This document shows, piece by piece, positions 3,654 through 55,078 of a stretch of 64,000 nucleotides of DNA; positions within the stretch are counted from its first letter, which is position 1, and each line of letters opens with the position of its first letter. The notes under the pieces are model-generated. The model was not told where the DNA came from and searched no databases. It was given only the letters and a program-made list of their open reading frames with translations. A program made the translations under genes and the position numbers. Source of the DNA: an uncultured virus (IMG/VR IMGVR_UViG_3300015608_004663) (Duplodnaviria > Heunggongvirae > Uroviricota > Caudoviricetes); the IMG/VR virus record IMGVR_UViG_3300015608_004663. One strand, 5' to 3'.

Positions 3654-3654
3654 G

Positions 3655-5056: not shown

Positions 5057-5058
5057 GC

Positions 5059-5519: not shown

Positions 5520-5623
5520 AAGCGCAATCATGGTTCTCAGCTAGCGGTCTGCAGTGATGCTCAGAGCAAGCGCAGTCAAGATCGCTTGGTGTTCAGAGAT
5601 CTTGATCGCAAAAGTGATCAAAC

Positions 5624-25474: not shown

Positions 25475-25715
25475 TTAAAAAATCTCCATCTTGTGCGTTG
25501 ATACCAACGATCACAGCACCACCATCAATCAGAAGCTTGTACCTGTCACTTGTGTTATCATTGATTGATAGCAACTGAATAACAAATGCTAATCTAGAAT
25601 CTCTATCTTCAAACTCAAATGTTTTTCTTAATCGAGATTTGTTCTCAAGCGTAACCCAATCGCTCTGAGGCACGATTGGGACGCTGTGTGAATTTATTTT
25701 GACAGGTAAACGCAC
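25389..25715 (-). CDS. Pterin-4a-carbinolamine dehydratase-like protein
   Basis: LRKTFEF...LAFV...LSDKDKQFARRAD; catalytic HHP absent. Confidence 0.65.
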   Translation of the reverse strand: MRLPVKINSHSVPIVPQSDWVTLENKSRLRKTFEFEDRDSRLAFVIQLLSINDNTSDRYKLLIDGGAVIVGINAQDGDFLSDKDKQFARRADDIYRDIKLYERKHNQF

Positions 25716-26574: not shown

Positions 26575-27040
26575 ACTTTGTTAGCAGAATATCAGTGACA
26601 GATTTTCTGTGCTCAGCTGGAATCTTGTCGATTCCCATCTTCAGTATTGTGTGCTTCAATTCTAAAATTTTGCTAGCTCTGTTAGCTATTCCTAGCAACT
26701 CTTGCGCAAAGCGCATTGCATTGAAATCATCAGATAAGATGTCATCAATGTACTTGTTAATTTGAGCATCAATTGATGCTTTTGATTGCGCTTGCTTTTG
26801 ATTTTTATCTTTGTCTTTTTCGCTATCATCTTCTTTGATCACGAACGGTGAGCGACCAAGACGAAAATCCCACTCTGCTAAAGTTAGCATCTTGCCCGTT
26901 GTTGACTTGATGATGATGTTGTCACCAAGAGATCTGTGCGATGCAACTGTTAACCTGAATTCTTGCAGTGCATTGCCGCTAGCGTCAATTTTTTGAACGC
27001 AAATCTTAGCACCAGGGCGCAGTAATTCTTCACCAATCAT
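26489..27040 (-). CDS. Hypothetical protein
   Basis: ATGA overlap with the upstream gene. Confidence 0.7.
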   Translation of the reverse strand: MIGEELLRPGAKICVQKIDASGNALQEFRLTVASHRSLGDNIIIKSTTGKMLTLAEWDFRLGRSPFVIKEDDSEKDKDKNQKQAQSKASIDAQINKYIDDILSDDFNAMRFAQELLGIANRASKILELKHTILKMGIDKIPAEHRKSVTDILLTKFGVSPDETAHETEANVQAPRAGRAGPST

Positions 27041-27765
27041 TTGATTGCCTGAGCAAGTGAATCTGATTTTGCTATCCGATCATTGATAACATCCCAATTT
27101 AGCTCTGCCATCATCTTTGATGCGTAATCCACGATGTTTGTGTTAAAATCTTTTACGTAAGAGTGCTCATGACAGTCAAGAACAATCACTGGCCATGAAC
27201 CAATGATAGCGTCAGTGTTATCATTGTGAATTGTGATATTCACAAACTTGCGCAGAAATGTATCAAACGTTGTAACGACCCAACCATTGCAGCGCATCTC
27301 ACTTGCTCTAGAGAAGAAGTCTCTTTGCCAATCATTGAAATCACCAAAATCTCTAGCTAATCTAGCGTAAGCAATTGATGAAATTGATATCTGACTGTTT
27401 CTGCAAAATGCATTGCTGAAAAATAACTCGTGAAGTAGCACGCTGTTTCTAGCAGAAACAAGATCACCATTTATCTTTGCAAGATTGTGAAAATCGCTCT
27501 TGCTTGATGACGATGCGCTCTCAGCAGATAATCTTGTATAAGATTCACATGCGTGTTTGTACACATCAATATGAAGCGCTTTTGATTCTTTTGAAATTAT
27601 GTCGCTGTCGAGTGCATATTGCTTTGGTTGCGCGACGAAAGCGATCGATTCATTGATTTTAGCTTTTTGCTTGATGTGAGATTGATCTTGAATCACATCA
27701 CGCAGTGGAATTTTAATTGATAATGATCGACTAGATTTCATAATCTTTCTCAAAAGTTGCTGCAT
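27037..27765 (-). CDS. Fe/Mn superoxide dismutase-like protein
   Basis: LH...Y, LHELFF, GWVV, VLDCHEHSY. Confidence 0.85.
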   Translation of the reverse strand: MQQLLRKIMKSSRSLSIKIPLRDVIQDQSHIKQKAKINESIAFVAQPKQYALDSDIISKESKALHIDVYKHACESYTRLSAESASSSSKSDFHNLAKINGDLVSARNSVLLHELFFSNAFCRNSQISISSIAYARLARDFGDFNDWQRDFFSRASEMRCNGWVVTTFDTFLRKFVNITIHNDNTDAIIGSWPVIVLDCHEHSYVKDFNTNIVDYASKMMAELNWDVINDRIAKSDSLAQAIK

Positions 27766-28003
27766 CTACTGCAAACTCTTTACCCTCTGGTGTTCTAAGA
27801 ATGACATCTTTCTTTGAAACTGACACGACAGTGTAAAGAAATCCAGTAGAAGAATGTTTAACTTTTAGATCGGGAGATGCATCATCGATCTTAGCATTCA
27901 CACTTTCTAACAAAGATGATAGCATAAACTCAAATTGTTTTTTTGCGCGCAAAATATTCATTTTACAGTATGTAATATCACAAAACAAACTTGTGCACAT
28001 CAA
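27731..28003 (-). CDS. Hypothetical SH3-like protein
   Basis: LKVKH...LYTVVSV...LRTPEG. Confidence 0.6.
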   Translation of the reverse strand: MMCTSLFCDITYCKMNILRAKKQFEFMLSSLLESVNAKIDDASPDLKVKHSSTGFLYTVVSVSKKDVILRTPEGKEFAVDAATFEKDYEI

Positions 28004-28916
28004 CTCCAGTATTTTTCAGCAACGCGATTCCAGAAGCATCTCTGTACTCTGATTCATAAATGACTTTTGATATGCGAGCGTTGATGATTGCTTTTGCGCA
28101 CATTATGCACGGACTGTGAGTAACGTACATGTATTTTTTTTGCAAACTGTGATAATCGAGCTTGATTAAGGCATTAAGTTCAGCGTGAATCATCCCAGAC
28201 TGACCTGGAATTTGCGACTCTCGCTCGTGCGGCCCGCCACGATAATTACCATTATATCCATGTGATAGAATCGTTGTGTTCTCATCATTTACGATGACAG
28301 CGCCAACTTTCAAAGAAGGATCATAAGATCTTTGCGCGATCAAGCGAGCCATTGTCATCCACGTCACGTTCCAGCTGTTTCTTTGCACAGCGCTAGAGAC
28401 ATCGTAGTCTGGAAACAGAGCAGAGAATCGCTGCAGAAACGCCACTTCAGCTTCGCGTGGAGTCATCGCTATGATCTCCATTGCGTAAGGATCGTGCGCG
28501 AAATCAAAACTGTGTGTTAACACTTGCTTGATCTCAGTTGCGCACACGCGTTGATCTGCATCATGAAGATCGTGCGGCTCGTTTTTGATATCTAAACCAA
28601 AGCGCTCATAAATTGACGCTTGAAGCTTGTGCTCAAGCTTGCGATAATCTGCAAACATTTGCGATTTTTTCTGAGGAGACGGAATGTCAAGCATGTACGC
28701 TTCAGACGCATCGTGCAGCAATCCATAGCGTGGATCTGAAGCGTACATTGATACTAGCACACTGTGCTGCGCAACACTGTAAAAATTCTTCACATGACCA
28801 GCATACCTGCAGATATTTGATAAAGCTTTAGCGATATCAAATATGTTTATATCATTGATATTATAAGAAAAAATATCAAATTTAACGCCGTTATTCGTCA
28901 TGATGTACGATGACAT
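27978..28916 (-). CDS. YfbR-like HD 5'-deoxynucleotidase fused to dCMP deaminase
   Basis: CRYAGH, YSVAQHS, LLHDASEAY; then HAELNA and SPCIMC. Confidence 0.88.
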   Translation of the reverse strand: MSSYIMTNNGVKFDIFSYNINDINIFDIAKALSNICRYAGHVKNFYSVAQHSVLVSMYASDPRYGLLHDASEAYMLDIPSPQKKSQMFADYRKLEHKLQASIYERFGLDIKNEPHDLHDADQRVCATEIKQVLTHSFDFAHDPYAMEIIAMTPREAEVAFLQRFSALFPDYDVSSAVQRNSWNVTWMTMARLIAQRSYDPSLKVGAVIVNDENTTILSHGYNGNYRGGPHERESQIPGQSGMIHAELNALIKLDYHSLQKKYMYVTHSPCIMCAKAIINARISKVIYESEYRDASGIALLKNTGVDVHKFVL

Positions 28917-28962
28917 ATATCATTTGCTTTCATTTGTTCAGATGTGATACGAGACTGCAGAA

Positions 28963-29517
28963 TCACTTTCTGCCAAGCAGTGGATGGTGCTTATAGCAAA
29001 CAGGTTCGTATGCTTCTGGACCACCTATCTTCACATCTTGTTCAGTTGGTTGTGAGCCATGTTTGAAGCTTGTGAATCTTGCATTTGCGCCACACACTAC
29101 GCAGACTGCATGAAGCTTATTGACAGCAGTAGCAATGCTAAGCAACTTCATAGATTCTTCAAATGGAATGCAACTTGCAGACAGATCAAGAGTTGATACA
29201 GATGCAGAGCAACCACGCATGAAATTATCCATGATTGCATCAGCTATGCCTTTGATCATAAAGGCTTCATCCACAGCAACAAACGTTGCTGTTTTTGTGA
29301 TCTCTCGAAACTCTTCTGCGCTCTCAATCGCAATAGCTTGCACGCTAAGACCCATGTGAGTGATAACAGAGTTATGAGCGTAGCGAGTGTCTATCTTGGG
29401 CTTCACTATAACAACATTATCACGACGATACTTGGCTCTCTCTGCGTCAACAAGCAAGTGAGTAGTCTTTGAAGCCATCATTGGGCCGCAGTAAACTGTG
29501 ATAGATGGTTCAATCAT
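28963..29517 (-). CDS. tdk: Thymidine kinase
   Basis: GPMMASKT, VDEAFM, CVVC, IGGPEAYEPVC. Confidence 0.92.
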   Translation of the reverse strand: MIEPSITVYCGPMMASKTTHLLVDAERAKYRRDNVVIVKPKIDTRYAHNSVITHMGLSVQAIAIESAEEFREITKTATFVAVDEAFMIKGIADAIMDNFMRGCSASVSTLDLSASCIPFEESMKLLSIATAVNKLHAVCVVCGANARFTSFKHGSQPTEQDVKIGGPEAYEPVCYKHHPLLGRK

Positions 29518-30482
29518 CTGAATGACTCAAACGCCCAACCGTGCCATGCGCACTTTTCTTTGATAAGAGCGTAACTTTCTTGTTTCAATCCGTTCTTACG
29601 CAACCAAAAAGCACCAATCAGCACTATGAAATCAAACCAGTATTCATCAATCTCGCTTGAAGCTCGAGACAGCACGTTTTCAACATCAGAGACTGATGCA
29701 GCACTGCGCAGATCTTGCTCTGCTTGAAGCATTTTTTCTAATGGGGGTTTTGATTTCATCTCTGGCATAGAGATCGATGCTTGCTTGCTATTGTTTGCAA
29801 GAACAATATTAACTTTATCAAAATCACGCTCGTAGATGTGCACTGATCCACCAGTGTGATTGTAAGATCCAAGTTTCACACCAAGCTCTAGCGCCATCAG
29901 CTCTTGAAAAAGAGTAAACGCTGGAACGTCGTTGGCAAGACCTAACCACAGATCTGAGCTGCGCATAGAGGCCCACATGTGGAGCGCGCTGTCTCTGATA
30001 AAGAACTGAAAGCCAATCGTGCAAGGAACATCAAGTTTCGCATGAAACGAATCGTGTGGCAATCTAATGTGAATGAACGCGCGGCGAGAATCTGGATCGC
30101 GCGTCAGCTCTTGCTTCACCCACTCCCACTGAGAGTGATTTATGCCCAACTCTGAAGCTTGCTTAAAGATCCTAGCGCCGTAGGCGGAATTCACATTAAC
30201 GCCATCATCAGATATCTTTGTCCAGAACGGAGCGTAGGGTGCAATCCAATTTACAGATCTAATACCTGCAAGATACCAAAGGCACTCAGCTGCCATGTAC
30301 TGAGGACTGTACAGTCGGCCGCTTATAAAGGGTAATCTGTGTCGAGGATTTGTGATTTTAAAAGATGAACACAAATTTTCTTTTATAAACTGTCCTCGTG
30401 GAGAGCAAGTAAACTCTGCTTCTTGAGCAACAGAGCGCAATTCAGCTAAATAAGCATCTGTGAACGTTTCAAATGATTTCAT
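29514..30482 (-). CDS. Thymidylate synthase-family enzyme, predicted dCMP hydroxymethylase
   Basis: PCT, MRSSD, GLAND (Asp where ThyA has Asn177), SVHIYE. Confidence 0.8.
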   Translation of the reverse strand: MKSFETFTDAYLAELRSVAQEAEFTCSPRGQFIKENLCSSFKITNPRHRLPFISGRLYSPQYMAAECLWYLAGIRSVNWIAPYAPFWTKISDDGVNVNSAYGARIFKQASELGINHSQWEWVKQELTRDPDSRRAFIHIRLPHDSFHAKLDVPCTIGFQFFIRDSALHMWASMRSSDLWLGLANDVPAFTLFQELMALELGVKLGSYNHTGGSVHIYERDFDKVNIVLANNSKQASISMPEMKSKPPLEKMLQAEQDLRSAASVSDVENVLSRASSEIDEYWFDFIVLIGAFWLRKNGLKQESYALIKEKCAWHGWAFESFR

Positions 30483-31438
30483 TTACTTGTCCATGCAAGA
30501 TTTTTCTCAGCCCACTCAGCTGTGAGCTCTAGTCCTTGCCAGATATTGACGCGTGGAATGTATCCAAGATCTTCTCGAGCAGATGTGATATCTGCTTGAG
30601 TGTGCATAACGTCACCAGCTCTTGTTGGTGCTGATACGCTATGAAATGAAACATATCGGTTCTTAAACCAAGAGAGAATCTCATTGTTTGAGGTTCTATC
30701 ACCGCAGCCGACATTGTAACTTTGCCCACTAAATGTAGCGCTGCGCTCACCAGCTAGCACGCAAGCGTCAACAACGTTAGCGACGTAGCACATGTCTCGT
30801 GTTTGCGTTCCATCTCCATCAGATCGCGCTGGCTTGCCAGCGGCGAGCGCAGCGAACCAGGCTGCGATAGCTGTGGCGTACGGTGAATCACCTAACTGTC
30901 TTGGGCCAAACACGTTAAAGAATCGCAAAGATACGCAATCAACACCGTACAGCTTAGAATACATGCGCAGCGCCATCTCACACTGAGCTTTCTGCATTGC
31001 GTACGGAGACGCTTGCGTAAACAAGCCAGCAGAAATTTCTTTAGCTGGCAACTCTACTTCTCCTCCATAGACAGAGCTTGAGGACGCTAGCACTAGCCTG
31101 GGCTTGCGCTTGCATTTTCGTATCGCTTCCAGCAATATCATAGTTTTATGATAGTTTTCTACGTACGTATCATGTGGATTCTCCACAGAGAAGCTTACGC
31201 GTGGAACTGCAGCCATGTGATACACAACATCAACACCATCCAAAGCATCAGTGATTAAATCAGAAGCAAAATCTTTTACGATTATCTGCTTAGATGTGTG
31301 CTTGTCTAGCAATTCTGGATGCCCATTTGACATGTTATCAACACCAACAGCATCACAACCTTTAGACAATAATGTTTCTAAGAGATGACCACCGATGAAA
31401 CCAGCAGCTCCAGTGACAATAGCAGTTTTTGTTGTCAT
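30479..31438 (-). CDS. NAD-dependent NDP-sugar epimerase/dehydratase
   Basis: TGAAGFIG, SSSSVYG, YAMQK, RFFNVFGP. Confidence 0.92.
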   Translation of the reverse strand: MTTKTAIVTGAAGFIGGHLLETLLSKGCDAVGVDNMSNGHPELLDKHTSKQIIVKDFASDLITDALDGVDVVYHMAAVPRVSFSVENPHDTYVENYHKTMILLEAIRKCKRKPRLVLASSSSVYGGEVELPAKEISAGLFTQASPYAMQKAQCEMALRMYSKLYGVDCVSLRFFNVFGPRQLGDSPYATAIAAWFAALAAGKPARSDGDGTQTRDMCYVANVVDACVLAGERSATFSGQSYNVGCGDRTSNNEILSWFKNRYVSFHSVSAPTRAGDVMHTQADITSAREDLGYIPRVNIWQGLELTAEWAEKNLAWTSK

Positions 31439-31479
31439 ATTGAATTTAATATAAATTCAAGCTGTTAGTTTGATCAATA

Positions 31480-32118
31480 TCACAAACCAAATGCAGCATA
31501 AATAGCGTTCCAATCAAATGCTGCACCCGGATCCCAAGAGCCACGATTGTTAAATCTGCTTATTGGATCTGCATCAGAGTGACCAAACACAGATTGTCTT
31601 GCTATCGGTATGCGACAAGACACAGAGATAGCAGCAATCAATTCTTGAAGCGCGATATACTGCTCATCTGTAAACACGCGCTCTGTTGGTTTGCGCAAAG
31701 CAACGAGTTCAATACCCACAGATGAGTAATTTGGCTTTGGACCAGCAATAGATCTTGGATCAGAAACATTGGGCCATCTAGCAAACCAAGAATCATAATA
31801 CGTATCTGATGCTGTTTCTTCAAGAGCACCATTACGCTTGCGCCAGCGCTTCCAAACATTCACGCCTTTATCGTACAAAGCAGCAACAGCGTCATTGTAC
31901 GCAATGTGCCAAGCCACGTTTGTTTCTGGAACGATTCTGTGAATAGTTCCGCTTGGATCAACAACGTAGTGCGGACACAGACTTTTTGGAGTTGTGTAGT
32001 ATTTTATTATTTTCGCAGCGTCGGTGTCGCCAGTGTTATGGATGATGATCTGAAAAGGATCTTTGTATCTAGCTGGTGTCGTTCTTGCTTTAGTGTGATC
32101 TATTATGTTCATCATCAT
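31480..32118 (-). CDS. N-acetylmuramoyl-L-alanine amidase (endolysin-like)
   Basis: IIIHNT, PHYVV, AWH, SVGIE, GHSD, DPG. Confidence 0.88.
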   Translation of the reverse strand: MMMNIIDHTKARTTPARYKDPFQIIIHNTGDTDAAKIIKYYTTPKSLCPHYVVDPSGTIHRIVPETNVAWHIAYNDAVAALYDKGVNVWKRWRKRNGALEETASDTYYDSWFARWPNVSDPRSIAGPKPNYSSVGIELVALRKPTERVFTDEQYIALQELIAAISVSCRIPIARQSVFGHSDADPISRFNNRGSWDPGAAFDWNAIYAAFGL

Positions 32119-32131
32119 ACGTATATGATGA

Positions 32132-33724
32132 TCACTGCAGAGCGCTAATAAATGATTTGTTGAACATAGATCTATTATCTGCAAAAAATCTTTCCCAGCA
32201 AGAGTCTAAGATGTACGTTTCTGCCCAATCAGTTTCATTCCTCACAGATCTTCCAACTGCTTGAGCTATCTTTGATGCAGTGATCCAAGAGTACCACTTT
32301 GGATTTCTCTCTGCTCGCTTTCGAACCCAAGCGTCTTGAAAGTGCGGAAAAGGAATCTTGCAAATGATCTGAAATCTACTCAGATCATCTCTGAGATCAA
32401 CACCCTCAATCATGGACGGAGAGAACAGAACAGTCGGTCTCTGCGTTGATAGATGCGTCGCTAGAGCTGCGTCTCTGTTTGAATCATCATGAAAGATGCA
32501 CCTAGAAGACGATATTGATTCTTGCAATATCTTTGATATTTTGTAATTGCCTGTGTGAACTATGCCTTTGTGCATTGAGTGCTCGCGCAGGATGATCTTA
32601 ACAGCTTCAATAAGATTTGGTATTGATTTATCGATCTGAGACGCAGACATTTTACCTATTGGTGTGTAGTGAATTGGTCGCTGCGCAGGATCAAAAGGAG
32701 ATTCAAAAGACACAAATCTTGCGCTCTTGTGATCGATACCTAGCGCATCACACAAGACGCTGCTGTCACAGATAGTAGCAGACATTAACAAAACGTTTGC
32801 TGCGTATTTAAAAAGCATCTGCTCAGCTGAATCAGCGATGTCTGTGGGTTTGATTGACACAGATATTTCTCCGTGCTCATCATAGCTTATGCTTGTTGCC
32901 CACGTGTCATCAATTGATTCAGCGATCCTTTTGATCTTTGAAATAAGATTAACTAACTTCTCCAGTCTTTTAGCTTCAAGCTGAATAACGCTAGATTCTA
33001 AGCTTTCTCTTGAAGCGCACGACAGCAGCTTTGTTATTTTTTCAATCTCTGTCTTGATAGCTTTTGCGCAAGTATCATTAAGCCATGTCACTATCTCATC
33101 TACGCTTGACAGATTTGGAACTGATATGTTTAATATTTTTCTGATTGATTGTGAGCTGAACTGCAGTTCACACATCGCGCACAGCGCTGTCTCTAGAGTG
33201 TGACACTCATCAATCGCCATGAATGGTTTTTTAACAATATCTTTTACGTACAGAGCATCATGCAAAAAGAATGCATAGTTTGTTAAACTTATATCACTAT
33301 CTAAAAAATCTTTCTTTGCAATTTTATACAAGCATGAAGCGCCGCAGATCTTATCTCCCATAAGCTTCTGCAACTTTGAAGATTCAGAGCAGTTAGCAGC
33401 AAGCTGCGAGCAACTGTAAGATGCAGCAGATTTGATAGATTTGATGTGCTGATTAAAATCATTAACATACTGATCTTGCAGAATTTTTTGCGGCGTTAAA
33501 ATGTAACCGCCAGATTTTATCTGGGCTGTCGTGATAGAGTTTCTTGCTGCAAAGTGCGCAAGCGTAGCAGCTACTGCTGATTTGCCGCAGCCCACACCCA
33601 TCTCTAGCAGCTCAAATTTGCGCCCAAGATCAAACGTTTCAAGAGCGTGCTCGATCGCTGCTACTTGCTGCGGCCGAGGTGAAGCGAAAGGAAAAGAATC
33701 ATGCCAGTCATGTGGGTGCATCAC
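32132..33724 (-). CDS. DinG/XPD-like Fe-S helicase
   Basis: RPQQ, GCGKS, four-Cys cluster, DECH, MSAT, QAVGRSVR. Confidence 0.9.
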   Translation of the reverse strand: MMHPHDWHDSFPFASPRPQQVAAIEHALETFDLGRKFELLEMGVGCGKSAVAATLAHFAARNSITTAQIKSGGYILTPQKILQDQYVNDFNQHIKSIKSAASYSCSQLAANCSESSKLQKLMGDKICGASCLYKIAKKDFLDSDISLTNYAFFLHDALYVKDIVKKPFMAIDECHTLETALCAMCELQFSSQSIRKILNISVPNLSSVDEIVTWLNDTCAKAIKTEIEKITKLLSCASRESLESSVIQLEAKRLEKLVNLISKIKRIAESIDDTWATSISYDEHGEISVSIKPTDIADSAEQMLFKYAANVLLMSATICDSSVLCDALGIDHKSARFVSFESPFDPAQRPIHYTPIGKMSASQIDKSIPNLIEAVKIILREHSMHKGIVHTGNYKISKILQESISSSRCIFHDDSNRDAALATHLSTQRPTVLFSPSMIEGVDLRDDLSRFQIICKIPFPHFQDAWVRKRAERNPKWYSWITASKIAQAVGRSVRNETDWAETYILDSCWERFFADNRSMFNKSFISALQ

Positions 33725-35025
33725 TCACCAAAAAGCTGCTTGATAGCGACTGGAGTTGTTTGCTCAAACGAGCACTGCTCTCTAACGATGCGTTTCAATT
33801 CTGCTTTAGATCGATTGAATGTGTCATCATTAGACTTGATCTTGCGCATCAATCTGATCGCGCCATCAACAATATCACTGAAATCTGGTGAGCACAGATT
33901 GTTCATATAACCCGCAGCGAGAGCGATCCGCGCATATTCATAATTTCTGATCCAGAGAGGAGCGCATCCCAATTCAATTCCTTCACGAGACGCTGTGCCG
34001 CCGTAAGCATCTTGATCATACAAACCAACGATGATGCTTGAGTGCTTCATCACGACTTTCATCTCATCTCTGTTAAAAGAATCTGGAACTAGCGAAATGG
34101 TTCCGCACATTTTCGCAAGCTCTTCATTCGTAAATTTTTGAGATGGATTACCAGCTATCACAGAGAACTTAATGTCTGAGCTAGCTCTTAGCTGCGGGAG
34201 AATGTCAAACAAGAATTTTCCACAGTTTGTGTAATCAGAGCTCCTGCCCTTTCCGCCAACTCTGTTTGGAACAAACACAATCAACTCTTGCGCTGCTAAG
34301 CGCTTCAATTCATTGACATCAAATCTTACGTTGCAAAGATTTGGCTCTGTTTGCATCTCTGCAGCAGAATAGCCATCATCCCACGGAGATGATTTTTTGC
34401 TAATAACACCAATCTGCCTTGCTGATAAAAACTGCTTTGCAGATTGGAGAAACACATTATAAGCAGAAGAGCACTGCCAAAAATTCCAGTCAGCTCGCTG
34501 CGCAGCTTCTAACTGTCCAAGCCACAGTGATGCATCAGTTGGAAACTTGGGACACTCTGGATTGTCAATGAAGTGAGAGTGCACGACGAAGCGAGGCCGC
34601 TTCGCTCCATGCAGAGCGAACATCGCGCAGAAATTTCTGAGGTGCATGGGATCGTTCATATAAACGACGTCAAACGGAGCTTCGCTCTTGTTTTTTTGCT
34701 TATCAAGCCGAAGAACTTTTGCTATCTGCGCTAGATTGAAATCAAATCTTGTAGCCAGAGCATTTGGAATCAGATCAATTGCAGCGTACTCAACTCTAGG
34801 GTCTAGCATGACATCTGGTGAAACTTTCTCTGGTTGAGTCTTCAGCTCTGTTCTTTTCGGGCCCGTGATCGTGATAGACAAATTCTGTCGTAGTTTTAGC
34901 AGCTCTCTGATGCGCCCAACCACCATTTGCCATCCAGAATCGCATTCAAGTATCCAGACACCGTTGGTGTCATAATTGCTAAGTTGCGTCTGAACAAGCA
35001 GTTTGATGCACGTATTATTTTTCAT
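33721..35025 (-). CDS. Putative GT-B glycosyltransferase
   Basis: VVHSH and DAYGGTASREGIELGCAP (GT4-like signature); context of sugar-nucleotide genes. Confidence 0.65.
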   Translation of the reverse strand: MKNNTCIKLLVQTQLSNYDTNGVWILECDSGWQMVVGRIRELLKLRQNLSITITGPKRTELKTQPEKVSPDVMLDPRVEYAAIDLIPNALATRFDFNLAQIAKVLRLDKQKNKSEAPFDVVYMNDPMHLRNFCAMFALHGAKRPRFVVHSHFIDNPECPKFPTDASLWLGQLEAAQRADWNFWQCSSAYNVFLQSAKQFLSARQIGVISKKSSPWDDGYSAAEMQTEPNLCNVRFDVNELKRLAAQELIVFVPNRVGGKGRSSDYTNCGKFLFDILPQLRASSDIKFSVIAGNPSQKFTNEELAKMCGTISLVPDSFNRDEMKVVMKHSSIIVGLYDQDAYGGTASREGIELGCAPLWIRNYEYARIALAAGYMNNLCSPDFSDIVDGAIRLMRKIKSNDDTFNRSKAELKRIVREQCSFEQTTPVAIKQLFGE

Positions 35026-35040
35026 ATTTGATTTCTTAGA

Positions 35041-35325
35041 CTAGTCGTTGTTTAATTTCATAACTTCCGCGCTGATCTCATCATCCTCAGGCTCTACAAC
35101 TATGATTCGCTTTGCAGATTTCGCAGTTTTAATAGTTGAGCTGACTGATGAAGCTTTGCAGCGAATTACGTACGAAGATATCGGATGTGAAACGTATATA
35201 GCAACGCAATCTTCTAAACCGCGCACGTGATCAAGGCGCACTTGATTATCACTTTTGCAGCCAGAGATGCAAAACAGTAACAATCCAAAGATTATTGCTT
35301 TCACTGCTAAATCACTCCTTCGCAC
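35041..35325 (-). CDS. Putative lipoprotein
   Basis: Lipobox-like ISGC. Confidence 0.6.
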   Translation of the reverse strand: MRRSDLAVKAIIFGLLLFCISGCKSDNQVRLDHVRGLEDCVAIYVSHPISSYVIRCKASSVSSTIKTAKSAKRIIVVEPEDDEISAEVMKLNND

Positions 35326-35449
35326 TGATTATATCAGCAGCACACAATGATCAAGAACATGATAAGCATAGCAGCGATGACAGTGTCAGGACCTAGATTG
35401 ATATGTTCCCAAACATCATCAGTTTCTTTTAACATAAAAATTCTCTCAA

Positions 35450-36076
35450 TTAAAGATCAAACACGTACGGAGCGTTGACAGGTTCATATCTGCGGTTGCA
35501 GATGGCAACGTTGCAAAACATCACACCGTAGCGCTCAAGAACACCGTAACCTTCATGGATGTGACCAAATATATGGTACTTTGGCTTTTTTTCGATGACC
35601 GCAGAGAGAAGCTCGTCACACCCTACGCGCTCTCCTCTAGACACATAATCTAGAATGTCTTTTGGTGGTCCATGCGTGATCAGCACGTCTGTGTCAGCTG
35701 GTATTTTGCTCCACACAGCTCCGAGCGCAGGACCTCTTGGAAGATTGAACGCCCAATTGTAGAACTCTGGTTGCCACGGAGATCCATAAAACTTGATCTG
35801 ATCAATCAGAGTATAAGAATCTTTAAGATAAACGATCCCAGCGTCTCTCAGAAGCTGCTCAAACTTTTCTGGTTCATCTTGAAATCCAAGATCATGATTT
35901 CCAGCTACAAAAATCTTGTGCTTGTGTGGTAAGTGAATCATAGATGTAGCGAATTCAAGCACTTCACTATATCGCCCACCCATAGTTGCATCACCAGCAT
36001 GAATCAGCACATCACCATCAGGAATGCTGATCTGCTTTAGTTTGCAGTGTGTATCAGAAATAGCAACAATACGCAT
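35450..36076 (-). CDS. Calcineurin-like metallophosphoesterase
   Basis: SDTH, HAGD, GNHD, THGPP, GHIHE. Confidence 0.93.
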   Translation of the reverse strand: MRIVAISDTHCKLKQISIPDGDVLIHAGDATMGGRYSEVLEFATSMIHLPHKHKIFVAGNHDLGFQDEPEKFEQLLRDAGIVYLKDSYTLIDQIKFYGSPWQPEFYNWAFNLPRGPALGAVWSKIPADTDVLITHGPPKDILDYVSRGERVGCDELLSAVIEKKPKYHIFGHIHEGYGVLERYGVMFCNVAICNRRYEPVNAPYVFDL

Positions 36077-36146
36077 TTAACACATCCTATCAAAGTTATT
36101 TGTGCAACACTCACAAACTAACTCTACCTTAGATTTGTTTTGATAT

Positions 36147-36419
36147 TCACTGATATTGCACGCTTAAGTGCGGATCTTGAAACAAGGCAATCTCTGCACT
36201 AAGAGTGCGCAGCACGATCTTGACGCCAGATTTTCTAAACGTAATACCTGTGACATTATACAACTTACTAGTGCGATCTCGCTCTAAAATCTCAAGAGCG
36301 CCATCGTAATAAGCTGGAACTTTAACGACTGAGTAGATGTCTTCATTGCTGACGCAGCACTCTTCTTCACCAGTCGGATCTAGTTCCGACAGCAGCTTGA
36401 TCAATTCTTTTGTTTTCAT
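36147..36419 (-). CDS. Hypothetical protein
   Basis: MKTKELIKLL phage-type start. Confidence 0.65.
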   Translation of the reverse strand: MKTKELIKLLSELDPTGEEECCVSNEDIYSVVKVPAYYDGALEILERDRTSKLYNVTGITFRKSGVKIVLRTLSAEIALFQDPHLSVQYQ

Positions 36420-37017
36420 AAGTCTGACAATCTTCCAGAAATTTAGTGATAGTTGAAATTTGTTGCTCTAAATTCTCACTATCAACGCAAAGTTTTAAAG
36501 TGCGGCACCGAGTGAATTCGCTGATGAAGCGAGCGTATGCATCAGATAATTCTTGCAATTTTTCAGAATTTATGCTCGGATCAATATCATCACACAGATT
36601 TTCATACGTTGTTCTGTAGCAGAAAATGATCTTTGCATCAAGTGATGCGTACGAATCATCTTCTAACCTGAGCATCTTGTGATCTGTTTCTCTGTTAGTC
36701 ACTGCAGAGTAAACATACTCGCATGGATATCCACGATCAAAGATCACAGATAGATTAGTTTGCTTGATCAGATCAAACACTCGCATATCAGCGTATCGTA
36801 GCTGATTCAGAAACAGCTCTCGCTTGTTAGCGAAAGAATTGTGCTCAGATGATGCTTTGAAATAAGCGATGTTCAAGCGCTGCGCAAGAGCTTTAGCGAT
36901 GTTTGTTTTACCAGTTTTGTCTGGTCCGACAAAAAAAATTATCTGCTGCGCACTATTCGTGTTCTTAAGCAAGGTGCACCAATCTGTTTGTTGAGTAACC
37001 AAACGCTGACTTTTCAA
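36367..37017 (-). CDS. Deoxynucleoside monophosphate kinase (thymidylate kinase-like)
   Basis: GPDKTGKT, IFDRGY; start uncertain. Confidence 0.8.
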   Translation of the reverse strand: MKSQRLVTQQTDWCTLLKNTNSAQQIIFFVGPDKTGKTNIAKALAQRLNIAYFKASSEHNSFANKRELFLNQLRYADMRVFDLIKQTNLSVIFDRGYPCEYVYSAVTNRETDHKMLRLEDDSYASLDAKIIFCYRTTYENLCDDIDPSINSEKLQELSDAYARFISEFTRCRTLKLCVDSENLEQQISTITKFLEDCQTYENKRIDQAAVGTRSDW

Positions 37018-39853: not shown

Positions 39854-40792
39854 TTATTTTGCGCTAGCTAATTTTTCTAATTTTAGAAGAAATTCTGAAC
39901 TCTCACGCTTGCCTAAAGCGCTAAAATTCAGATCGTGACTTGCAACAATATCACGCAAGCTCAAACCTGATTCGCTGATCATGTTTATCACTGTTAGAAG
40001 CGCAGAAAGCTCTTGTTTAGAAAGCGTAATTGCAGAAAGTCTGTAATCATCAAAAGCAGCAGCGACATCTGGCACCCATTGTTTTACGATATTCCACATA
40101 GCATCTGCGTACACTCTGATCTCATACTGAGCGTGCTTGTCTAAGCGCAGCGCCAAGAAGTGCAGAAGGTTGTGCAGATCGATCTTCCAGTACATCTCAG
40201 TATAATAATTCAATGACAGACTCATTCTAGCTAACTCTCTAGCTAGCTGCGGCCGATCTCGATCAATTGCAGCACCAGTTCCATCATCATTTAGTAGATG
40301 AGCGTAAACATCATACGCTTGCTCAGAATGCTTGCTGATTGCATCAATGATATCATCACAAATCTCTGATTGCATCATCGTGTCAGTCAGATCACGACCT
40401 TGCTTGTTTGTTACGCTCTGTTCACCAAGCGCATTAGCATCAGGGATGTAAAACTCACGATTGAGAATTGAATATCTTGCTGAGTACTCATTGATGTTTG
40501 CTGTGCGATGACGAATCCACTGCCTAGCAACGAAGATCGGAAGCTTGATGTGCAGCTTGATCTCGCACATCTCAAACGGCGTAGTGTGACGATGTCGCAT
40601 CAAGTAGCGAATCAGCGCAACATCTTCTGAAACTGTTTTCGTTCCAGTGCCGTATGATACGCGGGCAGCTTGCACAATCGCAGACTGATCACCCATGTAG
40701 TCTATGACTCGAATAAAACCGTGATCAAGAATGTTGATTTTGTTGCCTAAAATTTCATCCAGTGCTGCACTGTTAATTCGACGCTCTTGCAC
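39854..40792 (-). CDS. thyX: Flavin-dependent thymidylate synthase
   Basis: AARVSY, HTTPFE, RQWIRHRTANINEYSARY, HAQYEIR. Confidence 0.97.
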   Translation of the reverse strand: MQERRINSAALDEILGNKINILDHGFIRVIDYMGDQSAIVQAARVSYGTGTKTVSEDVALIRYLMRHRHTTPFEMCEIKLHIKLPIFVARQWIRHRTANINEYSARYSILNREFYIPDANALGEQSVTNKQGRDLTDTMMQSEICDDIIDAISKHSEQAYDVYAHLLNDDGTGAAIDRDRPQLARELARMSLSLNYYTEMYWKIDLHNLLHFLALRLDKHAQYEIRVYADAMWNIVKQWVPDVAAAFDDYRLSAITLSKQELSALLTVINMISESGLSLRDIVASHDLNFSALGKRESSEFLLKLEKLASAK

Positions 40793-47974: not shown

Positions 47975-48949
47975 TTAGCTCCTATTTAACCATTTGCTGG
48001 GTAATGTAATTGTGTAAAATTCACGTTGATCTGAATCAGGAATGTATTTTTGTTTAATTTTTTTGCGATTAGCTACGCCAGCTATTTCTGGGTGACGCAA
48101 TCGAGCGTATTTGCTTATCTCGCAGAAAAGATTCTGACAATCTATAAGCTTTAACTTTCTGCCAAACAGAGTTTGAAATTTTAAATCTCTTTTCTCAAAT
48201 TCACGGTCTTGAGCGATGCACACTTCTTTGATTATGTTTTCTAGCGTTGTTATTGATGCATTTGAAAAGCACTTTGATATTCCATCAATAGCACCCGGAC
48301 CGGGAACGATAAATTCATTCTCATCAAAATCAACAATGTCTGTGTAATTCAGATCAATCGCTAACTGATACGCTAGAAACGGACCAAATGATGGATAGCT
48401 TAGCAACAGCTTGTAAAGTGATTCGAGACTAGTCGTTGCTTTTACTTTTGAAGCAAACCGATCTGTCATCATCAATTCAATCAATTTTAGATGATCTGCG
48501 TGCTTAGATGATTCACCCAATCTCGGCGACGGCATCATGTACGCAGCGCTGTACAGCGCTACGCCAGCAGCTTGCAGCTTTGTTAACACATCAGCATACG
48601 CAGCTCTGTCAAACGATTCATATCTGATATCAATGAACACATCTCTTAAAAAGCGCCACGTTTCAATCTTGTTGAAGAGCTTAAACAGCAAAACTCGAAA
48701 CGTAACTTCTTCAGCGCTTTGCTCGCCTTGTCTGATCACGTCAGTTATCAAAAACTGACTAACTTTATCAGACACTCTGTAGGGATTTGTAAATCTATGA
48801 TTAGCAATGATCGAATCATCTGTCCATGGTGGTGGATCGCCCGCAAGACGCTTAAGCAGAACTGCTTGTCTCTCAGCAGCAAAATACCAATATGAATCAT
48901 AAACGCAAGTTGGTGAAGCACTTTGAATCACAGTCATCAAACAATCCAA
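47975..48949 (-). CDS. aGPT-Pplase/5-hmdU DNA kinase helical-domain family protein
   Basis: YFAAERQ, PPPWTDD, FTNPYRVSD, GPFLAYQ, GPGA, QNLFCE. Confidence 0.75.
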   Translation of the reverse strand: MDCLMTVIQSASPTCVYDSYWYFAAERQAVLLKRLAGDPPPWTDDSIIANHRFTNPYRVSDKVSQFLITDVIRQGEQSAEEVTFRVLLFKLFNKIETWRFLRDVFIDIRYESFDRAAYADVLTKLQAAGVALYSAAYMMPSPRLGESSKHADHLKLIELMMTDRFASKVKATTSLESLYKLLLSYPSFGPFLAYQLAIDLNYTDIVDFDENEFIVPGPGAIDGISKCFSNASITTLENIIKEVCIAQDREFEKRDLKFQTLFGRKLKLIDCQNLFCEISKYARLRHPEIAGVANRKKIKQKYIPDSDQREFYTITLPSKWLNRS

Positions 48950-49161
48950 TTACAGTTTGGCAAAACATCAACTATGACTTCATTTTCAAGCCCAAGAAGC
49001 GCAACGCGCCTGACAACTTGATCATATGATTTAGCAGCTATGATCACGCCTCGATCTTTGTGAACAGCGATACACAGCCCTGGATACAGTCGAAGCTGTT
49101 CATAGAACTTTGCTCTGTGCTCACCGATGCTGTTAACTCGCATTGTTTTCATACCAAACAA
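48937..49161 (-). CDS. Hypothetical protein
   Basis: ORF in operon. Confidence 0.55.
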   Translation of the reverse strand: MFGMKTMRVNSIGEHRAKFYEQLRLYPGLCIAVHKDRGVIIAAKSYDQVVRRVALLGLENEVIVDVLPNCNWIV

Positions 49162-50095
49162 ACGTGGATCTTAATCCGTCTTCTAGAGACACTCGTGGAG
49201 ACCAATCCAGAAGCTTGACAGCTAAAGAAATATCAGGCTTTCTATTTGTTGGATCGTCTGCGGGCCTGCCTAGTGAAACAAACCCCACAGTGTGTCCAGT
49301 GACACTCTGGATTATTGTTCCCAGCTCTTTAATGGTAACCTCTCTTGGATTGCCAAGATTCACTGGTGTGCTTGGTGGTGATTTTAATTCTGCGAGCTTG
49401 ATCAACCCAGACACAAGATCTGATACAAAGCACAGAGATCGAGTCTGTTCTCCGCTACCGTGGATTGGCAGCGGACGATTTTCAAGAATCGCTTTGATAA
49501 ATTCTGTAACAACTCGCCCATCACCGATCATCATCCGTGGGCCGTAGGTGTTGAATATTCGCGCAAGTCTAACATCAAGACCCTGAGACTTAGCGATCCA
49601 CAAGATAGATTCAGCAGCTCTCTTACCTTCATCATAACAAGATCTTGGACCCCAAGAATTTGCATTACCCCAGTACGATTCTGTTTGAGGTGAAAGTTGT
49701 GGATCACCGTATATCTCTGATGTTGATGCATGAATGATCTTGCCACCAGATTTAGCAGCGATCGCAACACAACTAGCAACACCTATGACAGACGTCATCA
49801 ATGTGTGCATTGGCATGCGCATGTAAGCAGGCGGCGCTGCTGGGCAAGCCATGTTAAAAACATGACTATAGTCTGATCCGACTGCGTGAAGCAGCGCATC
49901 TGTCTCTGCTACATTAACTTTTCGAAATGAATATTTTTTTCGCTTTAGCAGCGCTAAGTGATGCGCAGATCGTTCAGAAGATGTTGAAAAATCATCTACA
50001 CCAACAACTTCGCACCCTTGATCAAGTAGAGTATCAGCTAGATGCGAACCAAGAAATCCAGCAGCGCCTGTGATTAAAACTCTAGCATCATTCAT
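49133..50095 (-). CDS. UDP-glucuronate decarboxylase (UDP-xylose synthase)-like SDR
   Basis: GAAGFLGS, ACPAAP, STSEIYG, ESYWGN, YDEGKR, FNTYGPRM. Confidence 0.9.
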   Translation of the reverse strand: MNDARVLITGAAGFLGSHLADTLLDQGCEVVGVDDFSTSSERSAHHLALLKRKKYSFRKVNVAETDALLHAVGSDYSHVFNMACPAAPPAYMRMPMHTLMTSVIGVASCVAIAAKSGGKIIHASTSEIYGDPQLSPQTESYWGNANSWGPRSCYDEGKRAAESILWIAKSQGLDVRLARIFNTYGPRMMIGDGRVVTEFIKAILENRPLPIHGSGEQTRSLCFVSDLVSGLIKLAELKSPPSTPVNLGNPREVTIKELGTIIQSVTGHTVGFVSLGRPADDPTNRKPDISLAVKLLDWSPRVSLEDGLRSTFVWYENNAS

Positions 50096-50101
50096 AATAT
50101 G

Positions 50102-50131
50102 AGTGTACTGCATCAGTGATTAACAGTGCAC
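50102..50131 (-). promoter_or_regulatory. Putative promoter GTGCAC-N18-TACACT
   Basis: Recurring motif 6 nt before ATG 50095. Confidence 0.65.
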
Positions 50132-53835: not shown

Positions 53836-54204
53836 CTAGTATCCAGCGTTAATTCTGTTAACGTTAACTTCGCCCTTGCGAAGGTAAGCATCGCAAAGCT
53901 CTTGAGCAGACACAGAAGATACAATGCAAAGTTCGATGAAAAAATGAAAATGATCAGCTAATTCTTCAACGTATTTTTCTCGATCAAACTCTGTGATCTC
54001 TGTCATTCTGTGCTGCTTTGAATTCTTCAGGTGCTGAATAGCTTCATGAAGTTCATCCATCGCATCATGAGCAATGTCTTTGCAAAGCTTTTGTCCTTGC
54101 TTTGTCAAGATATCAACTGGAAACTCTGGGAAAAGTTTCTTTGAACGAAGAAGCTGCATAAATTGCAGTTGCTGATCAAAAAGCGAGCGCATATCTGTTG
54201 ACAT
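53836..54204 (-). CDS. All-alpha NTP pyrophosphatase (dimeric dUTPase/dCTPase-like)
   Basis: DELHE, EELAD..HF, YLRK..VN..R..GY. Confidence 0.8.
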   Translation of the reverse strand: MSTDMRSLFDQQLQFMQLLRSKKLFPEFPVDILTKQGQKLCKDIAHDAMDELHEAIQHLKNSKQHRMTEITEFDREKYVEELADHFHFFIELCIVSSVSAQELCDAYLRKGEVNVNRINAGY

Positions 54205-54206: not shown

Positions 54207-54431
54207 TTACCTCAGTGCGTCTATCTCAGATAGCATCTTGTTGTAATGATCTTTCACAAGATCAAGATAGCCATCTGCTAGAGTCACGCTTGATCCATCA
54301 ACTTTTAGTTGAATTGTGCGAAGAAGATCTGTAATATCAGTTCCAGTCAAGATCGCTTCTTGCAAGATCTGCGCAATCCGCGCGATGACTGGATCAGCTA
54401 GAGTTAGATTCGATTTCTGTTGCTGCATCAA
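54207..54431 (-). CDS. Hypothetical protein
   Basis: ORF in operon. Confidence 0.65.
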   Translation of the reverse strand: MMQQQKSNLTLADPVIARIAQILQEAILTGTDITDLLRTIQLKVDGSSVTLADGYLDLVKDHYNKMLSEIDALR

Positions 54432-55078
54432 GGATTCACCTCTTTCTTTGTTAGTGTTGACAGATACATCATTATGTGATCGTTTAACACAGATCTGATA
54501 TTGTCAGATACGTCTGCAATAGTTCCATCTGCGCTCACTGCGATTACGCTTTTGTTATCACAAAATTGTGTGTACAAGCGTTTCACTCGATCTTGCAAAG
54601 TAACATCTGCTTCATACGAATCTTGAGCGCTGCGTGAAAGACGCTCATCACTTGATCTAGTCAGCACTACACTGATATCTGGTTCTCGAAGAACGCTGCC
54701 AAGTGTTTTGATCAATGAAATTGATAAACCGCTTGCTGCTCCATACACAACAGATGATAGGTGCCACCTATCAAAGATTATGATATCTTCTTTTGCAAAG
54801 AGCAGTCTTGTCTGACAAATCAATTTATTCAAAAGCTGCAGAAGCTGAAACAGCAGGGGATGACGAACAGCAGCGCCAGAGAATAACATATGATAGATGA
54901 TCTTGTGTGTAACATGATCATTGAACGGAGTTTTGATCGCTAGTGCAGATACACCAGCTTCAGTCAAACTACGATGCAAAATTTTTGCTTGCGTAGTTTT
55001 ACCCGTCATATCACATCCTTCAAAAGCAATAATCAATTTTTTATTGAGCATCAGTTTGTCTCGCGTTAGTGTCATCAT
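54428..55078 (-). CDS. tmk: Thymidylate kinase
   Basis: FEGCDMTGKTTQ, DRW..S..VY, PD. Confidence 0.85.
   Translation of the reverse strand: MMTLTRDKLMLNKKLIIAFEGCDMTGKTTQAKILHRSLTEAGVSALAIKTPFNDHVTHKIIYHMLFSGAAVRHPLLFQLLQLLNKLICQTRLLFAKEDIIIFDRWHLSSVVYGAASGLSISLIKTLGSVLREPDISVVLTRSSDERLSRSAQDSYEADVTLQDRVKRLYTQFCDNKSVIAVSADGTIADVSDNIRSVLNDHIMMYLSTLTKKEVNP

Follow-up and report, generated by a model that had tools for sequence, protein, structure and literature searches.

Organization of the gene cluster

The DNA analysed here, a 64,000-nucleotide stretch of the uncultured virus record IMGVR_UViG_3300015608_004663 from IMG/VR (the window), carries a gene cluster that is predicted to make 5-hydroxymethylcytosine (5hmC) and to glycosylate it in phage DNA. 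The central genes encode a 322-amino-acid (aa) protein of the ThyA superfamily (29514..30482), a UDP-sugar 4-epimerase of the short-chain dehydrogenase/reductase type (SDR1; 30479..31438), a 434-aa putative DNA (5hmC) glycosyltransferase (GT; 33721..35025), a Tmk-like nucleotide kinase (36367..37017) and, farther upstream, a UDP-glucuronate decarboxylase, that is, a UDP-xylose synthase (UXS; 49133..50113). The start of the ThyA-family gene overlaps SDR1 by 4 bases (ATGA), and its stop overlaps by 4 bases the start of a thymidine kinase gene (28963..29517; PF00265, E 3.1e-32), which suggests that these three genes form one operon. An amidase and a DEAD/ResIII helicase gene, identified by Pfam (31480..33724), lie between the GT and the epimerase and fall outside the pathway.

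All of these genes belong to a single minus-strand block that extends from about 20.6 kb to 64 kb and, according to scans of the open reading frames (ORFs) of the window, is composed of genes for phage replication and nucleotide metabolism. The replication and recombination genes of the block include a split DNA polymerase III (PolIII) alpha subunit, two DnaB-like genes, RecA, a gp32-like protein and DNA ligase, and its nucleotide-supply genes include ribonucleotide reductase, dUTPase, ThyX, thymidine kinase and dCMP deaminase. Eight tRNA genes were found in the window.

A megablast search of window positions 27900-36100 against 50,697 phage records returned no match. Relatives of the 434-aa GT gene were located on IMG/VR contigs of up to 369 kb, one of which has terminal repeats and is rated 100% complete, and the related near-complete genomes measure 309-369 kb. 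Given these large contigs and the lack of a near phage record, the window is, to judge from its sequence relatives, a fragment of the genome of an uncultured giant phage.

The ThyA homolog as a predicted dCMP hydroxymethylase

The ThyA-family protein matched PF00303 (E 8.6e-26) and was aligned by MAFFT with E. coli K-12 ThyA, T4 gp42, RB69 gp48, the MP1412 dUMP hydroxymethylase and LuckyBarnes gp41. The original prediction had compared a GLAND motif, found where E. coli ThyA has GLPFN, with GFRND of T4 gp42, and had read its aspartate as the determinant of dCMP use. The comparison of motifs was borne out by the alignment. The three motifs fall together, and window residue D185 shares a column with N177 of E. 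coli ThyA and D179 of T4 gp42, whereas the dUMP hydroxymethylases have Asn there. The Asp in the D177 column is accompanied by Asp in the L143 column, by D169 and by Ser167/Arg126, which is the pattern of T4 gp42.

In columns numbered after the E. coli enzyme, the window protein has E58, R126, R127, D143, C146, T147, R166, S167, D169, G173, D177, H207 and Y209, the same residue as in T4 gp42 at each of the 13 active-site positions compared. At positions 143/147/169/177, both proteins have D/T/D/D, compared with L/H/D/N in E. coli ThyA, D/N/D/N in two dUMP hydroxymethylases and E/T/N/D in RB69 gp48; these control rows showed the residues as published. The window protein has the thymidylate synthase fold with the catalytic Cys in the C146 column, the acidic residue in the L143 column is the Asp within KLDVPC, and the deoxyribose-type Ser167 and Arg126 are both present.

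According to the available sections of Lee et al. (Nucleic Acids Research 2026; PMC13326640), N177D is a marker of dCMP use, an acidic residue at L143 one of a hydroxymethyl product, and D169N marks the flavin-dependent 5-hydroxy-dCMP (5hodCMP) synthases of RB69, DLP3, Thanatos and RL38J1. The accessible text of Zhao et al. (PMC5175136) attributes the CMP preference of MilA, the CMP 5-hydroxymethylase of mildiomycin synthesis, to Ala176/Lys133' in place of Ser167/Arg126 of deoxy-specific enzymes, and reports that the A176S/K133R mutant of MilA prefers dCMP. A 5-hydroxy-dCMP synthase of the RB69 gp48/DLP3 gp80 type was ruled out for the window protein because Asp169 is kept and D169N is absent, and a CMP-specific enzyme of the MilA type was ruled out because Ser and Arg are found instead of Ala176/Lys133'. 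Since the active-site residues match those of T4 gp42 and Asp169 is kept, the product of the enzyme is predicted to be 5-hydroxymethyl-dCMP (5hm-dCMP) and not 5hodCMP, dTMP, 5hm-dUMP or 5hm-CMP.

The nearest solved structure is MilA (5jnh/5b6d; 157 bits, E 4e-45), compared with about 69 bits for ThyA and 49.7 bits for T4 gp42. Identity to T4 gp42 is 25%, and in a maximum-likelihood tree the window protein fell outside the clade of gp42 and 15 viral loci (support 100/100), in a group of long MilA-like forms. On these grounds the enzyme is predicted to be gp42-like in its class of function and not a gp42 ortholog. In a pairwise alignment with RB69 gp48 (29% identity overall), MRSQN of the latter corresponds to MRSSD of the window protein.

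A glycosyltransferase of GT-B fold

None of the families in Pfam, PHROGs or NCBIfam matched the 434-aa ORF. Its relatives, which are metagenomic, number 401 at E<=1e-3, and no Pfam domain was present among the 120 of them that were listed. An AlphaFold2 model of the protein (predicted local distance difference test score, pLDDT, 92.4; predicted template-modelling score, pTM, 0.89) displayed the two Rossmann-like domains of the GT-B fold. The best Foldseek match was MshA (3c4q, E 3e-12), followed by BshA, GlgM, glycogen synthase and sucrose-phosphate synthase, and the matches to MshA, BshA, GlgM, glycogen synthase and OtsA covered E values of 3e-12 to 1e-8 and template-modelling (TM) scores of 0.5-0.74. 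When the model was searched against BFVD, phage GTs ranked first (E 5e-16). The transferase had been proposed from its sequence as GT-B-like, and the modelled structure identifies it as a GT-B (GT4-like) glycosyltransferase of a separate sequence family. Table 1 of PMC13326640 lists the same MshA entry, 3c4q, for arabinosyltransferase 1 of RB69.

Conservation of the gene set in related viral loci

In order to examine the conservation of the cluster, 36 IMG/VR viral loci were picked by the GT family alignment, with 10 kb on each side, and were searched by tblastn with 32 window proteins; when the ThyA homolog alone was used as the query, no related loci were found. Relatives of the ThyA homolog were present in 34 of the 36 loci, of the Tmk-like kinase in 33 (mostly just upstream of the GT), of SDR1 in 32 (beside the GT in most), of the dCMP deaminase-HD fusion in 30 and of the thymidine kinase in 29. 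The common gene order is PolIII, kinase, GT, epimerase, hydroxymethylase, thymidine kinase and deaminase. Homologs of the helicase and of the amidase were each found at the corresponding site in only one of the 36 loci (L001), and elsewhere the GT adjoins the epimerase, which indicates that the two genes were inserted. The recurrence of the same gene association in 36 related viral loci argues that it is not due to chance.

All 34 ThyA homologs of these loci have D143, C146, D169 and D177. The maximum-likelihood tree, which contained 37 distinct rows of 40, divided them into three lineages that occupy the same syntenic slot and do not form one ortholog group. The first is the clade that holds T4 gp42 itself, with 15 loci; the second is a middle-length clade (support 99/94) that includes L001, the closest relative of the window; and the third consists of the long MilA-like forms, including that of the window. 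Repeated replacement of the gene, with its signature and its neighbours kept, is strong evidence at the sequence level that the module requires 5hm-dCMP.

Nucleotide-pool genes

Both a separate supply of dTMP and dedicated nucleotide kinases had been proposed for this phage. The former was verified: the flavin-dependent thymidylate synthase ThyX (39854..40792) matched PF02511 (E 2.3e-56), scored 243 bits against the solved structure 6j61 and has the RHR-x7-S motif. Kinases are also present, although their number is three and not the two dNMP kinases that had been counted. The Tmk-like P-loop kinase upstream of the GT (36367..37017; phrog_761 thymidylate kinase, E 1.5e-9; Walker A motif GPDKTGKT) is the candidate 5hm-dCMP kinase; the second, of the thymidylate kinase family (54428..55078), matched PF02223 (E 5.9e-15) and TIGR00041 (63 bits, below the cut-off of 83); and the third, again Tmk-like with a P-loop, is located at 9081-9650. 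A fusion of an HD 5'-deoxynucleotidase and a dCMP deaminase (27978..28916; PF00383, E 6.3e-23; phrog_318 and phrog_174) may supply dUMP.

The all-alpha NTP pyrophosphatase of the original prediction was recovered as two candidates. The first, a 122-aa all-alpha nucleotide pyrophosphohydrolase (53836..54204; phrog_12184, E 1.4e-17; PF08761 weak), is a candidate dCTPase and is the only window ORF that T4 gp56 (dCTPase) matched, weakly (28% identity over 61 aa, blastp E 3e-4, phmmer E 7e-5). The second is the C-terminus of 45802-46737 (PRA-PH, E 4e-4). A sequence search of the PDB with the 311-aa MazG-like protein gave no matches.

Sugar-nucleotide genes and the identity of the sugar

An NDP-sugar epimerase had been noted next to the ThyA-like gene, and SDR1 was confirmed as a 4-epimerase of the SDR type in that position (PF01370, E 9.6e-51; GxxGxxG and YxxxK motifs). 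Its nearest solved relatives are the UDP-N-acetylhexosamine (UDP-HexNAc) 4-epimerases WbgU/WbpP (165-171 bits; 161-171 bits when PelX-like enzymes are included), compared with 115-121 bits for UDP-glucuronate (UDP-GlcA) 4-epimerases (6zl6, 121 bits) and about 83 bits for E. coli GalE, and its best NCBIfam match is TviC. Cellular relatives of SDR1 were found at two loci of metagenome-assembled genomes, with no adjoining UXS in either.

The assignment of 49133..50113 as a UDP-glucuronate decarboxylase held: the protein scored 285 bits (E 7e-84) against human UXS1 (2b69/4gll), whereas the next enzyme class reached 111 bits and ArnA about 76 bits. It has the motifs STSE and YDEGK, which we take to be the catalytic motifs of UXS. 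High-scoring UXS orthologs (43-64% identity, E<=1e-79) are present on 24 of 29 related contigs, including all three that are rated at least 90% complete, and coordinate arithmetic placed UXS 5-20.4 kb upstream of the GT and in the same orientation in 22 of these 24 (14.1 kb in the window). Among 50,697 phage records, only 10 have a UXS at E<=1e-40. A gene of the UDP-sugar dehydrogenase family is present in each of the five related genomes. The sequence of the enzyme suggests that UDP-xylose is very probably made during infection, and UDP-xylose, or UDP-arabinose made from it by SDR1, may be the donor for the GT. A phage UXS that makes UDP-xylose would make a pentose the leading candidate for the sugar on 5hmC, namely xylose, or L-arabinose if SDR1 takes UDP-xylose. 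The pentose is proposed tentatively, at odds clearly below even; a HexNAc, a hexose or a hexuronate is also possible.

Alternatively, 5hmC may be glycosylated with a hexose-type sugar, in which case SDR1 would convert a UDP-sugar of the host for the GT (UDP-GlcNAc to UDP-GalNAc, UDP-Glc to UDP-Gal, or UDP-GlcA to UDP-GalA) and UXS would serve a second sugar or another glycan. This explanation is a sub-variant that overlaps the reading of the DNA as carrying glycosylated 5hmC. The resemblance of SDR1 to UDP-HexNAc 4-epimerases and to TviC is consistent with it, as is the position of SDR1 beside the GT, with UXS 5-20 kb away. The tested phage pairs of GT and epimerase gave 5hmC carrying hexose (Hex), HexNAc or hexuronate (HexA), according to the accessible text of Pyle et al. 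(10.1101/2023.12.21.572611). Locus L002 has SDR1 and, between it and the GT, an additional SDR, with no UXS on a contig that spans 72 kb upstream of the GT. On the other hand, UXS, which has no known role besides making UDP-xylose, is nevertheless kept within the replication and nucleotide block on most of the related contigs, and it is rare in phages. A hexose-type sugar is considered unlikely on balance, yet it is the most serious of the alternatives.

Loci L017 and L031 each have a divergent SDR (35-37% identity), and the 56.9-kb contig of L017 has no UXS. The variable sugar genes beside the GT in L002, L017 and L031 hint at different sugars in sister phages.

Proposed pathway

From its family and active-site residues, the long MilA-like ThyA homolog would hydroxymethylate dCMP before replication, and the Tmk-like kinase would then phosphorylate 5hm-dCMP. 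The gp56-like pyrophosphohydrolase may clear dCTP, while dCMP deaminase and ThyX would keep dTMP supplied, so that 5hm-dCTP would be incorporated into DNA instead of dCTP. After replication, the 434-aa GT-B enzyme, to judge from its fold and conserved synteny, would use a UDP-sugar to glycosylate the 5-hydroxymethyl group, with the neighbouring 4-epimerase SDR1 tailoring the donor and the phage UXS converting UDP-glucuronate to UDP-xylose. The gene identities, active-site signatures, folds and conserved association are observed, and the chemistry, the acceptor and the sugar are predicted. We estimate the probability that the DNA carries glycosylated 5hmC, whatever the sugar, at roughly 0.6. 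Of the pathway that had been drawn from the sequence, the cytosine and hydroxymethyl half is strongly supported and the GT-B and UXS genes are genuine; the pentose is a plausible part of it, set against the HexNAc-like character of SDR1 and the missing dehydrogenase in the window.

Several results weigh against the proposed pathway. The GT is tied to proven DNA glycosyltransferases by fold alone: tblastn of the GT against the 50,697 phage records returned nothing at E<=1e-3, and hhalign of its family against RB69 p046/p047 gave a probability of 0.2%, so that no sequence homology to any proven DNA GT was detected. In the window, two inserted genes part the GT from the epimerase, and UXS lies 14 kb from the GT. 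The match that supports the dCTPase candidate covers 61 residues. The source phage is uncultured and far from cultured relatives (best identity of its PolIII alpha to cultured phages, 28%), and the locus counts overstate independence, since near-duplicates are present (L023/L024/L030, L026/L027 and L033/L034). With regard to the pentose, SDR1 is closest to UDP-HexNAc 4-epimerases and has no tie to UDP-xylose, the five related contigs without a high-scoring UXS include one that is 78% complete (the others, 9, 17, 24 and 26%), and no UDP-glucose dehydrogenase was found by the ORF scans of the window. In G021, a complete relative, about 135 kb separates two dehydrogenase genes from the GT. They form part of a second sugar cluster (G021:320000-338000, L044) that also has a GT1 glycosyltransferase, a PseB-like dehydratase, a DegT aminotransferase and a GNAT protein, and that is bordered by NAD-salvage genes (NAPRTase/NAMPT and NMNAT-NUDIX). 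This separate cluster suggests that these phages also make other sugars, perhaps for other targets.

Glycosylated hydroxymethylcytosine is a well-established counter-defence of phages against bacterial DNA cutting. The known chemistry is narrow, comprising glucose on 5hmC, arabinose or hexoses on 5-hydroxycytosine (5hoC), and Hex, HexNAc or HexA on 5hmC made by TET. The locus described here defines a large clade of uncultured giant phages that combines a hydroxymethylase signature of proven type with its own sugar-nucleotide genes, including the phage-rare UXS, and in which three hydroxymethylase lineages have been exchanged in one slot with the signature preserved. It also brings forward a sizeable unannotated GT-B family as candidate DNA glycosyltransferases that could be useful for epigenetic tools, and offers enzymes for a probable new DNA base.

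A more specific proposal is that, in a whole clade of uncultured phages of 310-370 kb, pentosyl-5hmC (with xylose or L-arabinose) takes the place of cytosine by means of the UDP-GlcA to UDP-Xyl branch and the Pfam-less GT-B enzyme, and that in the sublineage of the window a further step on the modified cytosine may be added by a helix-hairpin-helix (HhH) protein of family PF18723, which resembles the amino-acid:DNA transferases (AADT) in its fold and until now has been seen only with 5-hydroxymethyluracil (5hmU) systems. Taken as a whole, this proposal is speculative and rather unlikely to hold in every part. No report of pentosyl-5hmC was found in full-text literature searches, in which pentoses on phage cytosine appeared only for the 5hoC phages RB69, DLP3 and Thanatos. 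The available sections of a moraphage paper (PMC12619734) and of a jumbo-phage overview (PMC7824862) do not describe this module.

Comparison with known modification systems

The glucosyl-5hmC system of T4 hydroxymethylates dCMP before replication by means of a ThyA homolog, as the pathway proposed here would do, and the two homologs share the 13 active-site residues. Both also have a GT-B transferase near the hydroxymethylase (T4 gene 42 lies beside beta-gt), a dCMP deaminase, a separate dTMP synthase and a gp56-like pyrophosphohydrolase, the latter weak in the window. In contrast to T4, the hydroxymethylase of the window has the long MilA-like form and falls outside the gp42 clade, the kinase is Tmk-like, dTMP would come from ThyX, and the GT belongs to an unrelated GT-B family, with the T4 alpha- and beta-glucosyltransferases (AGT/BGT) not among its top 50 fold matches. 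The phage also brings its own 4-epimerase and UXS, and a sugar other than plain glucose is therefore likely.

The glycosyl-5hoC systems of RB69, DLP3 and RL38J1, as described in the accessible parts of PMC13326640, share with the window the trio of a Tmk-like kinase, an MshA-like GT-B enzyme and a MilA-like ThyA homolog, as well as phage-encoded synthesis of an unusual UDP-sugar. Their ThyA homologs, however, are flavin-dependent D169N enzymes that produce 5hodCMP, whereas the window enzyme keeps D169. The route to arabinose in the RB69 type leads from ribulose-5-phosphate through an isomerase, a kinase/uridylyltransferase and a phosphatase, whereas that of the window would lead from UDP-GlcA to UDP-Xyl through UXS. 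The GTs of RB69 and the window have no sequence homology, and their kinases match at the P-loop only (E 0.002). According to the same source, the base of RB69-type phages that was known as 'arabinosyl-hmC' has proved to be arabinosyl-5-hydroxycytosine, which is made by way of D169N enzymes. Since the window gene is not of the D169N type, the analogy to the known pentosyl phages does not carry over.

The pairing of a GT with an adjacent epimerase, as in GT and SDR1, is also a property of the TET/5mYOX 'subclass II' clusters of Pyle et al. (10.1101/2023.12.21.572611), in which the activity of the GT on 5hmC depended on the paired epimerase and the products carried Hex, HexNAc or HexA. In these clusters 5hmC is made in DNA by a C5-methyltransferase and TET, whereas in the window it would be made as a nucleotide by the ThyA homolog. 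In the available text of that paper, the words pentose, xylose and arabinose do not occur and UXS is not mentioned.

The alignment with MilA extended over 287 residues, including part of the C-terminal extension, and Asp at 143 and 177 is common to both proteins (available sections of PMC13326640). The difference lies in MilA Ala176/Lys133', for which the window protein has Ser/Arg, which corresponds to the A176S/K133R state (accessible text of PMC5175136), and in the setting, an antibiotic cluster for MilA and a phage replication block for the window. The thymidine hypermodification systems of M6, PaMx11 and ViI are linked to the window by a PF18723 protein, which belongs to the family of MP1412_14 and has a fold closest to PaMx11 gp46. 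They differ in that no PF18748, PF18724 or dUMP hydroxymethylase was found in the window, where the predicted hydroxymethylpyrimidine is cytosine.

The PF18723 protein beside UXS

The gene next to UXS (47975..48949) encodes a protein of family PF18723 (E 2.1e-103), formerly 'aGPT-Pplase clade 1' and of the M6 gp55 type. Although the label of the family is '5-hmdU DNA kinase, helical domain', the window protein has no P-loop. Its AlphaFold2 model (pLDDT 92.8) had no Foldseek match at E<=0.001, and a sequence search of the PDB gave no matches. VIA-align placed the 5-PmdU glycinyltransferase gp46 of PaMx11 first (8z2m; Z 10.4 over 221 residues, root-mean-square deviation 3.9), followed by the queuine-salvage DUF2419 enzyme (Z 10.1 and 9.8) and by some twenty DNA glycosylases of the HhH class (Z 5-8.4); Z values below about 13 can be unspecific for helical proteins, and the argument is that the list is coherent. 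A comparison of PF18723 with the MP1412 AADT by hhalign (probability 0.1%) detected no sequence homology to the AADT family. The model thus places the protein in an HhH-glycosylase-like fold that is closest to AADT, and not among kinases. Two adjacent residues, Cys and Glu (C276-E277), are invariant in the family alignment; PaMx11 gp46 uses Cys247, with Glu243 nearby (PMC11472151).

Of 8,000 candidates scored, 7,549 proteins belonged to the PF18723 family at E<=1e-5, and in 50 of the 120 relatives listed the protein is fused to a Tmk-like domain, to a length of about 561-565 aa. A split DNA-base kinase composed of a window Tmk-like kinase and the PF18723 protein was rejected, because none of the three window kinases is a specific partner: the best match to the kinase domain of the fusions was 26% identity and 40 bits, compared with about 53% identity for the PF18723 part. 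The M6-like phage MP1412 encodes a separate kinase of family PF18748 and a PF18724 transferase; its PF18723 member, MP1412_14, corresponds to gp55. M6 gp55 was dispensable for the reconstituted step (PMC8989533).

In Brevibacterium phage LuckyBarnes (L038, 2858-6873), a 517-aa ThyA homolog of the N177 dUMP-hydroxymethylase type and two TET-associated glycosyltransferases precede the PF18723 gene, and no kinase is present. The record names the transferases beta-glucosyl-HMC-alpha-glucosyltransferase; the residues of the ThyA homolog (N177) suggest glycosylated 5hmU instead of the HMC label.

Among the five related genomes, the PF18723 gene occurs only in the closest one, G001, again near UXS, which indicates that it is an accessory of the sublineage. 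A search for PF18748 was negative in all five, with the control genomes equally silent. The window thus provides a first cytosine-linked context for this unexplained protein.

Alternative explanations

It is possible that the DNA contains plain 5hmC or nothing further and that the GT, the epimerase and UXS serve to glycosylate another target, for example virion proteins or glycans of the host surface. The GT4 enzymes that share the GT fold act on small molecules, lipids and glycans, the GT has no sequence link to proven DNA GTs, and giant-phage relatives carry the separate sugar cluster described above. In most of the 36 loci, however, the GT lies between a nucleotide kinase and the epimerase and dCMP hydroxymethylase, inside the replication block, and this neighbourhood was retained, with the signature, when three hydroxymethylase lineages were swapped. 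Moreover, the trio of kinase, GT and ThyA homolog is the proven DNA-glycosylation module of RB69, and T4 likewise has gene 42 beside beta-gt. A target other than DNA is therefore regarded as improbable.

Hypermodification of thymidine, in which 5hmU, once made, would be phosphorylated in the DNA and then substituted, as happens in M6, ViI and PaMx11, is suggested by the PF18723 protein, by the dCMP deaminase, by the dUMP-type hydroxymethylases in both cultured-phage contexts examined (MP1412 and LuckyBarnes), and by the many PF18723 relatives fused to a Tmk-like kinase. It is nevertheless very improbable, since the sole ThyA-family gene found in the window is of the cytosine type (D177), ThyX supplies dTMP, and the PF18748 kinase and PF18724 transferase are not among the window ORFs scanned, although the same scan detects both in MP1412. 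In addition, the kinase domain of the fusions has no specific partner among the window kinases, gp55 could be omitted from the reconstituted M6 step (PMC8989533), and four of the five related genomes lack PF18723 and keep the rest of the module.

An RB69/DLP3-type system, in which a flavin-dependent 5-hydroxy-dCMP synthase would allow the sugar to be ether-linked straight to C5 (the arabinosyl-5hoC type), can practically be dismissed in spite of the same gene trio, the 29% identity to RB69 gp48 and a best solved match to MilA, as for RB69 gp48 and DLP3 gp80 (Table 1, available sections of PMC13326640), because Asp169 is present in the window protein and in all 34 locus homologs where RB69 gp48 has Asn in the same alignment, and because no Afh-type arabinose-5-phosphate isomerase, kinase/uridylyltransferase or HAD phosphatase was seen in Pfam scans of the window ORFs.

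Other features of the window

The DnaE-type PolIII alpha subunit is split into separate ORFs, of which 36965-38488 and 42118-44349 represent a PHP and NTPase part and a finger and HhH part. Between the halves lie about 3.6 kb that contain the genes for ThyX and an HD protein as well as small ORFs. Of the 36 related loci, 27 and 31 have the two parts, each found on its own. The DnaB-like helicase genes are located at 2-832, where the gene is cut by the start of the window, and at 58143-59552.

A stretch of about 4.3 kb (1800-6100) contains no ORF longer than 133 aa in any frame, has a G+C content of up to 59% compared with about 42% elsewhere, and directly precedes four clustered tRNA genes. 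Searches for Rfam families, tandem repeats and blastn matches in phages were negative for this stretch.

A 242-aa protein (27037-27765), which has only the C-terminal domain of an Fe/Mn superoxide dismutase (E 1.6e-16), is encoded next to the deaminase and is kept in 28 of the 36 related loci. A 170-aa ORF (44391-44903) matched a PHROG annotated as nucleoside 2-deoxyribosyltransferase (E 2.2e-10), a superfamily that also includes the hmCMP N-glycosidase MilB and dNMP N-hydrolases, and is possibly a nucleotide-pool editing enzyme. The window also encodes a GroEL-like chaperonin (14318-15850), a weak Fpg/Nei-like glycosylase (17260-18192), a pterin-4a-carbinolamine dehydratase (25389-25715) and an MT-A70 adenine methyltransferase (55041-55691), the last of which suggests a second DNA modification.

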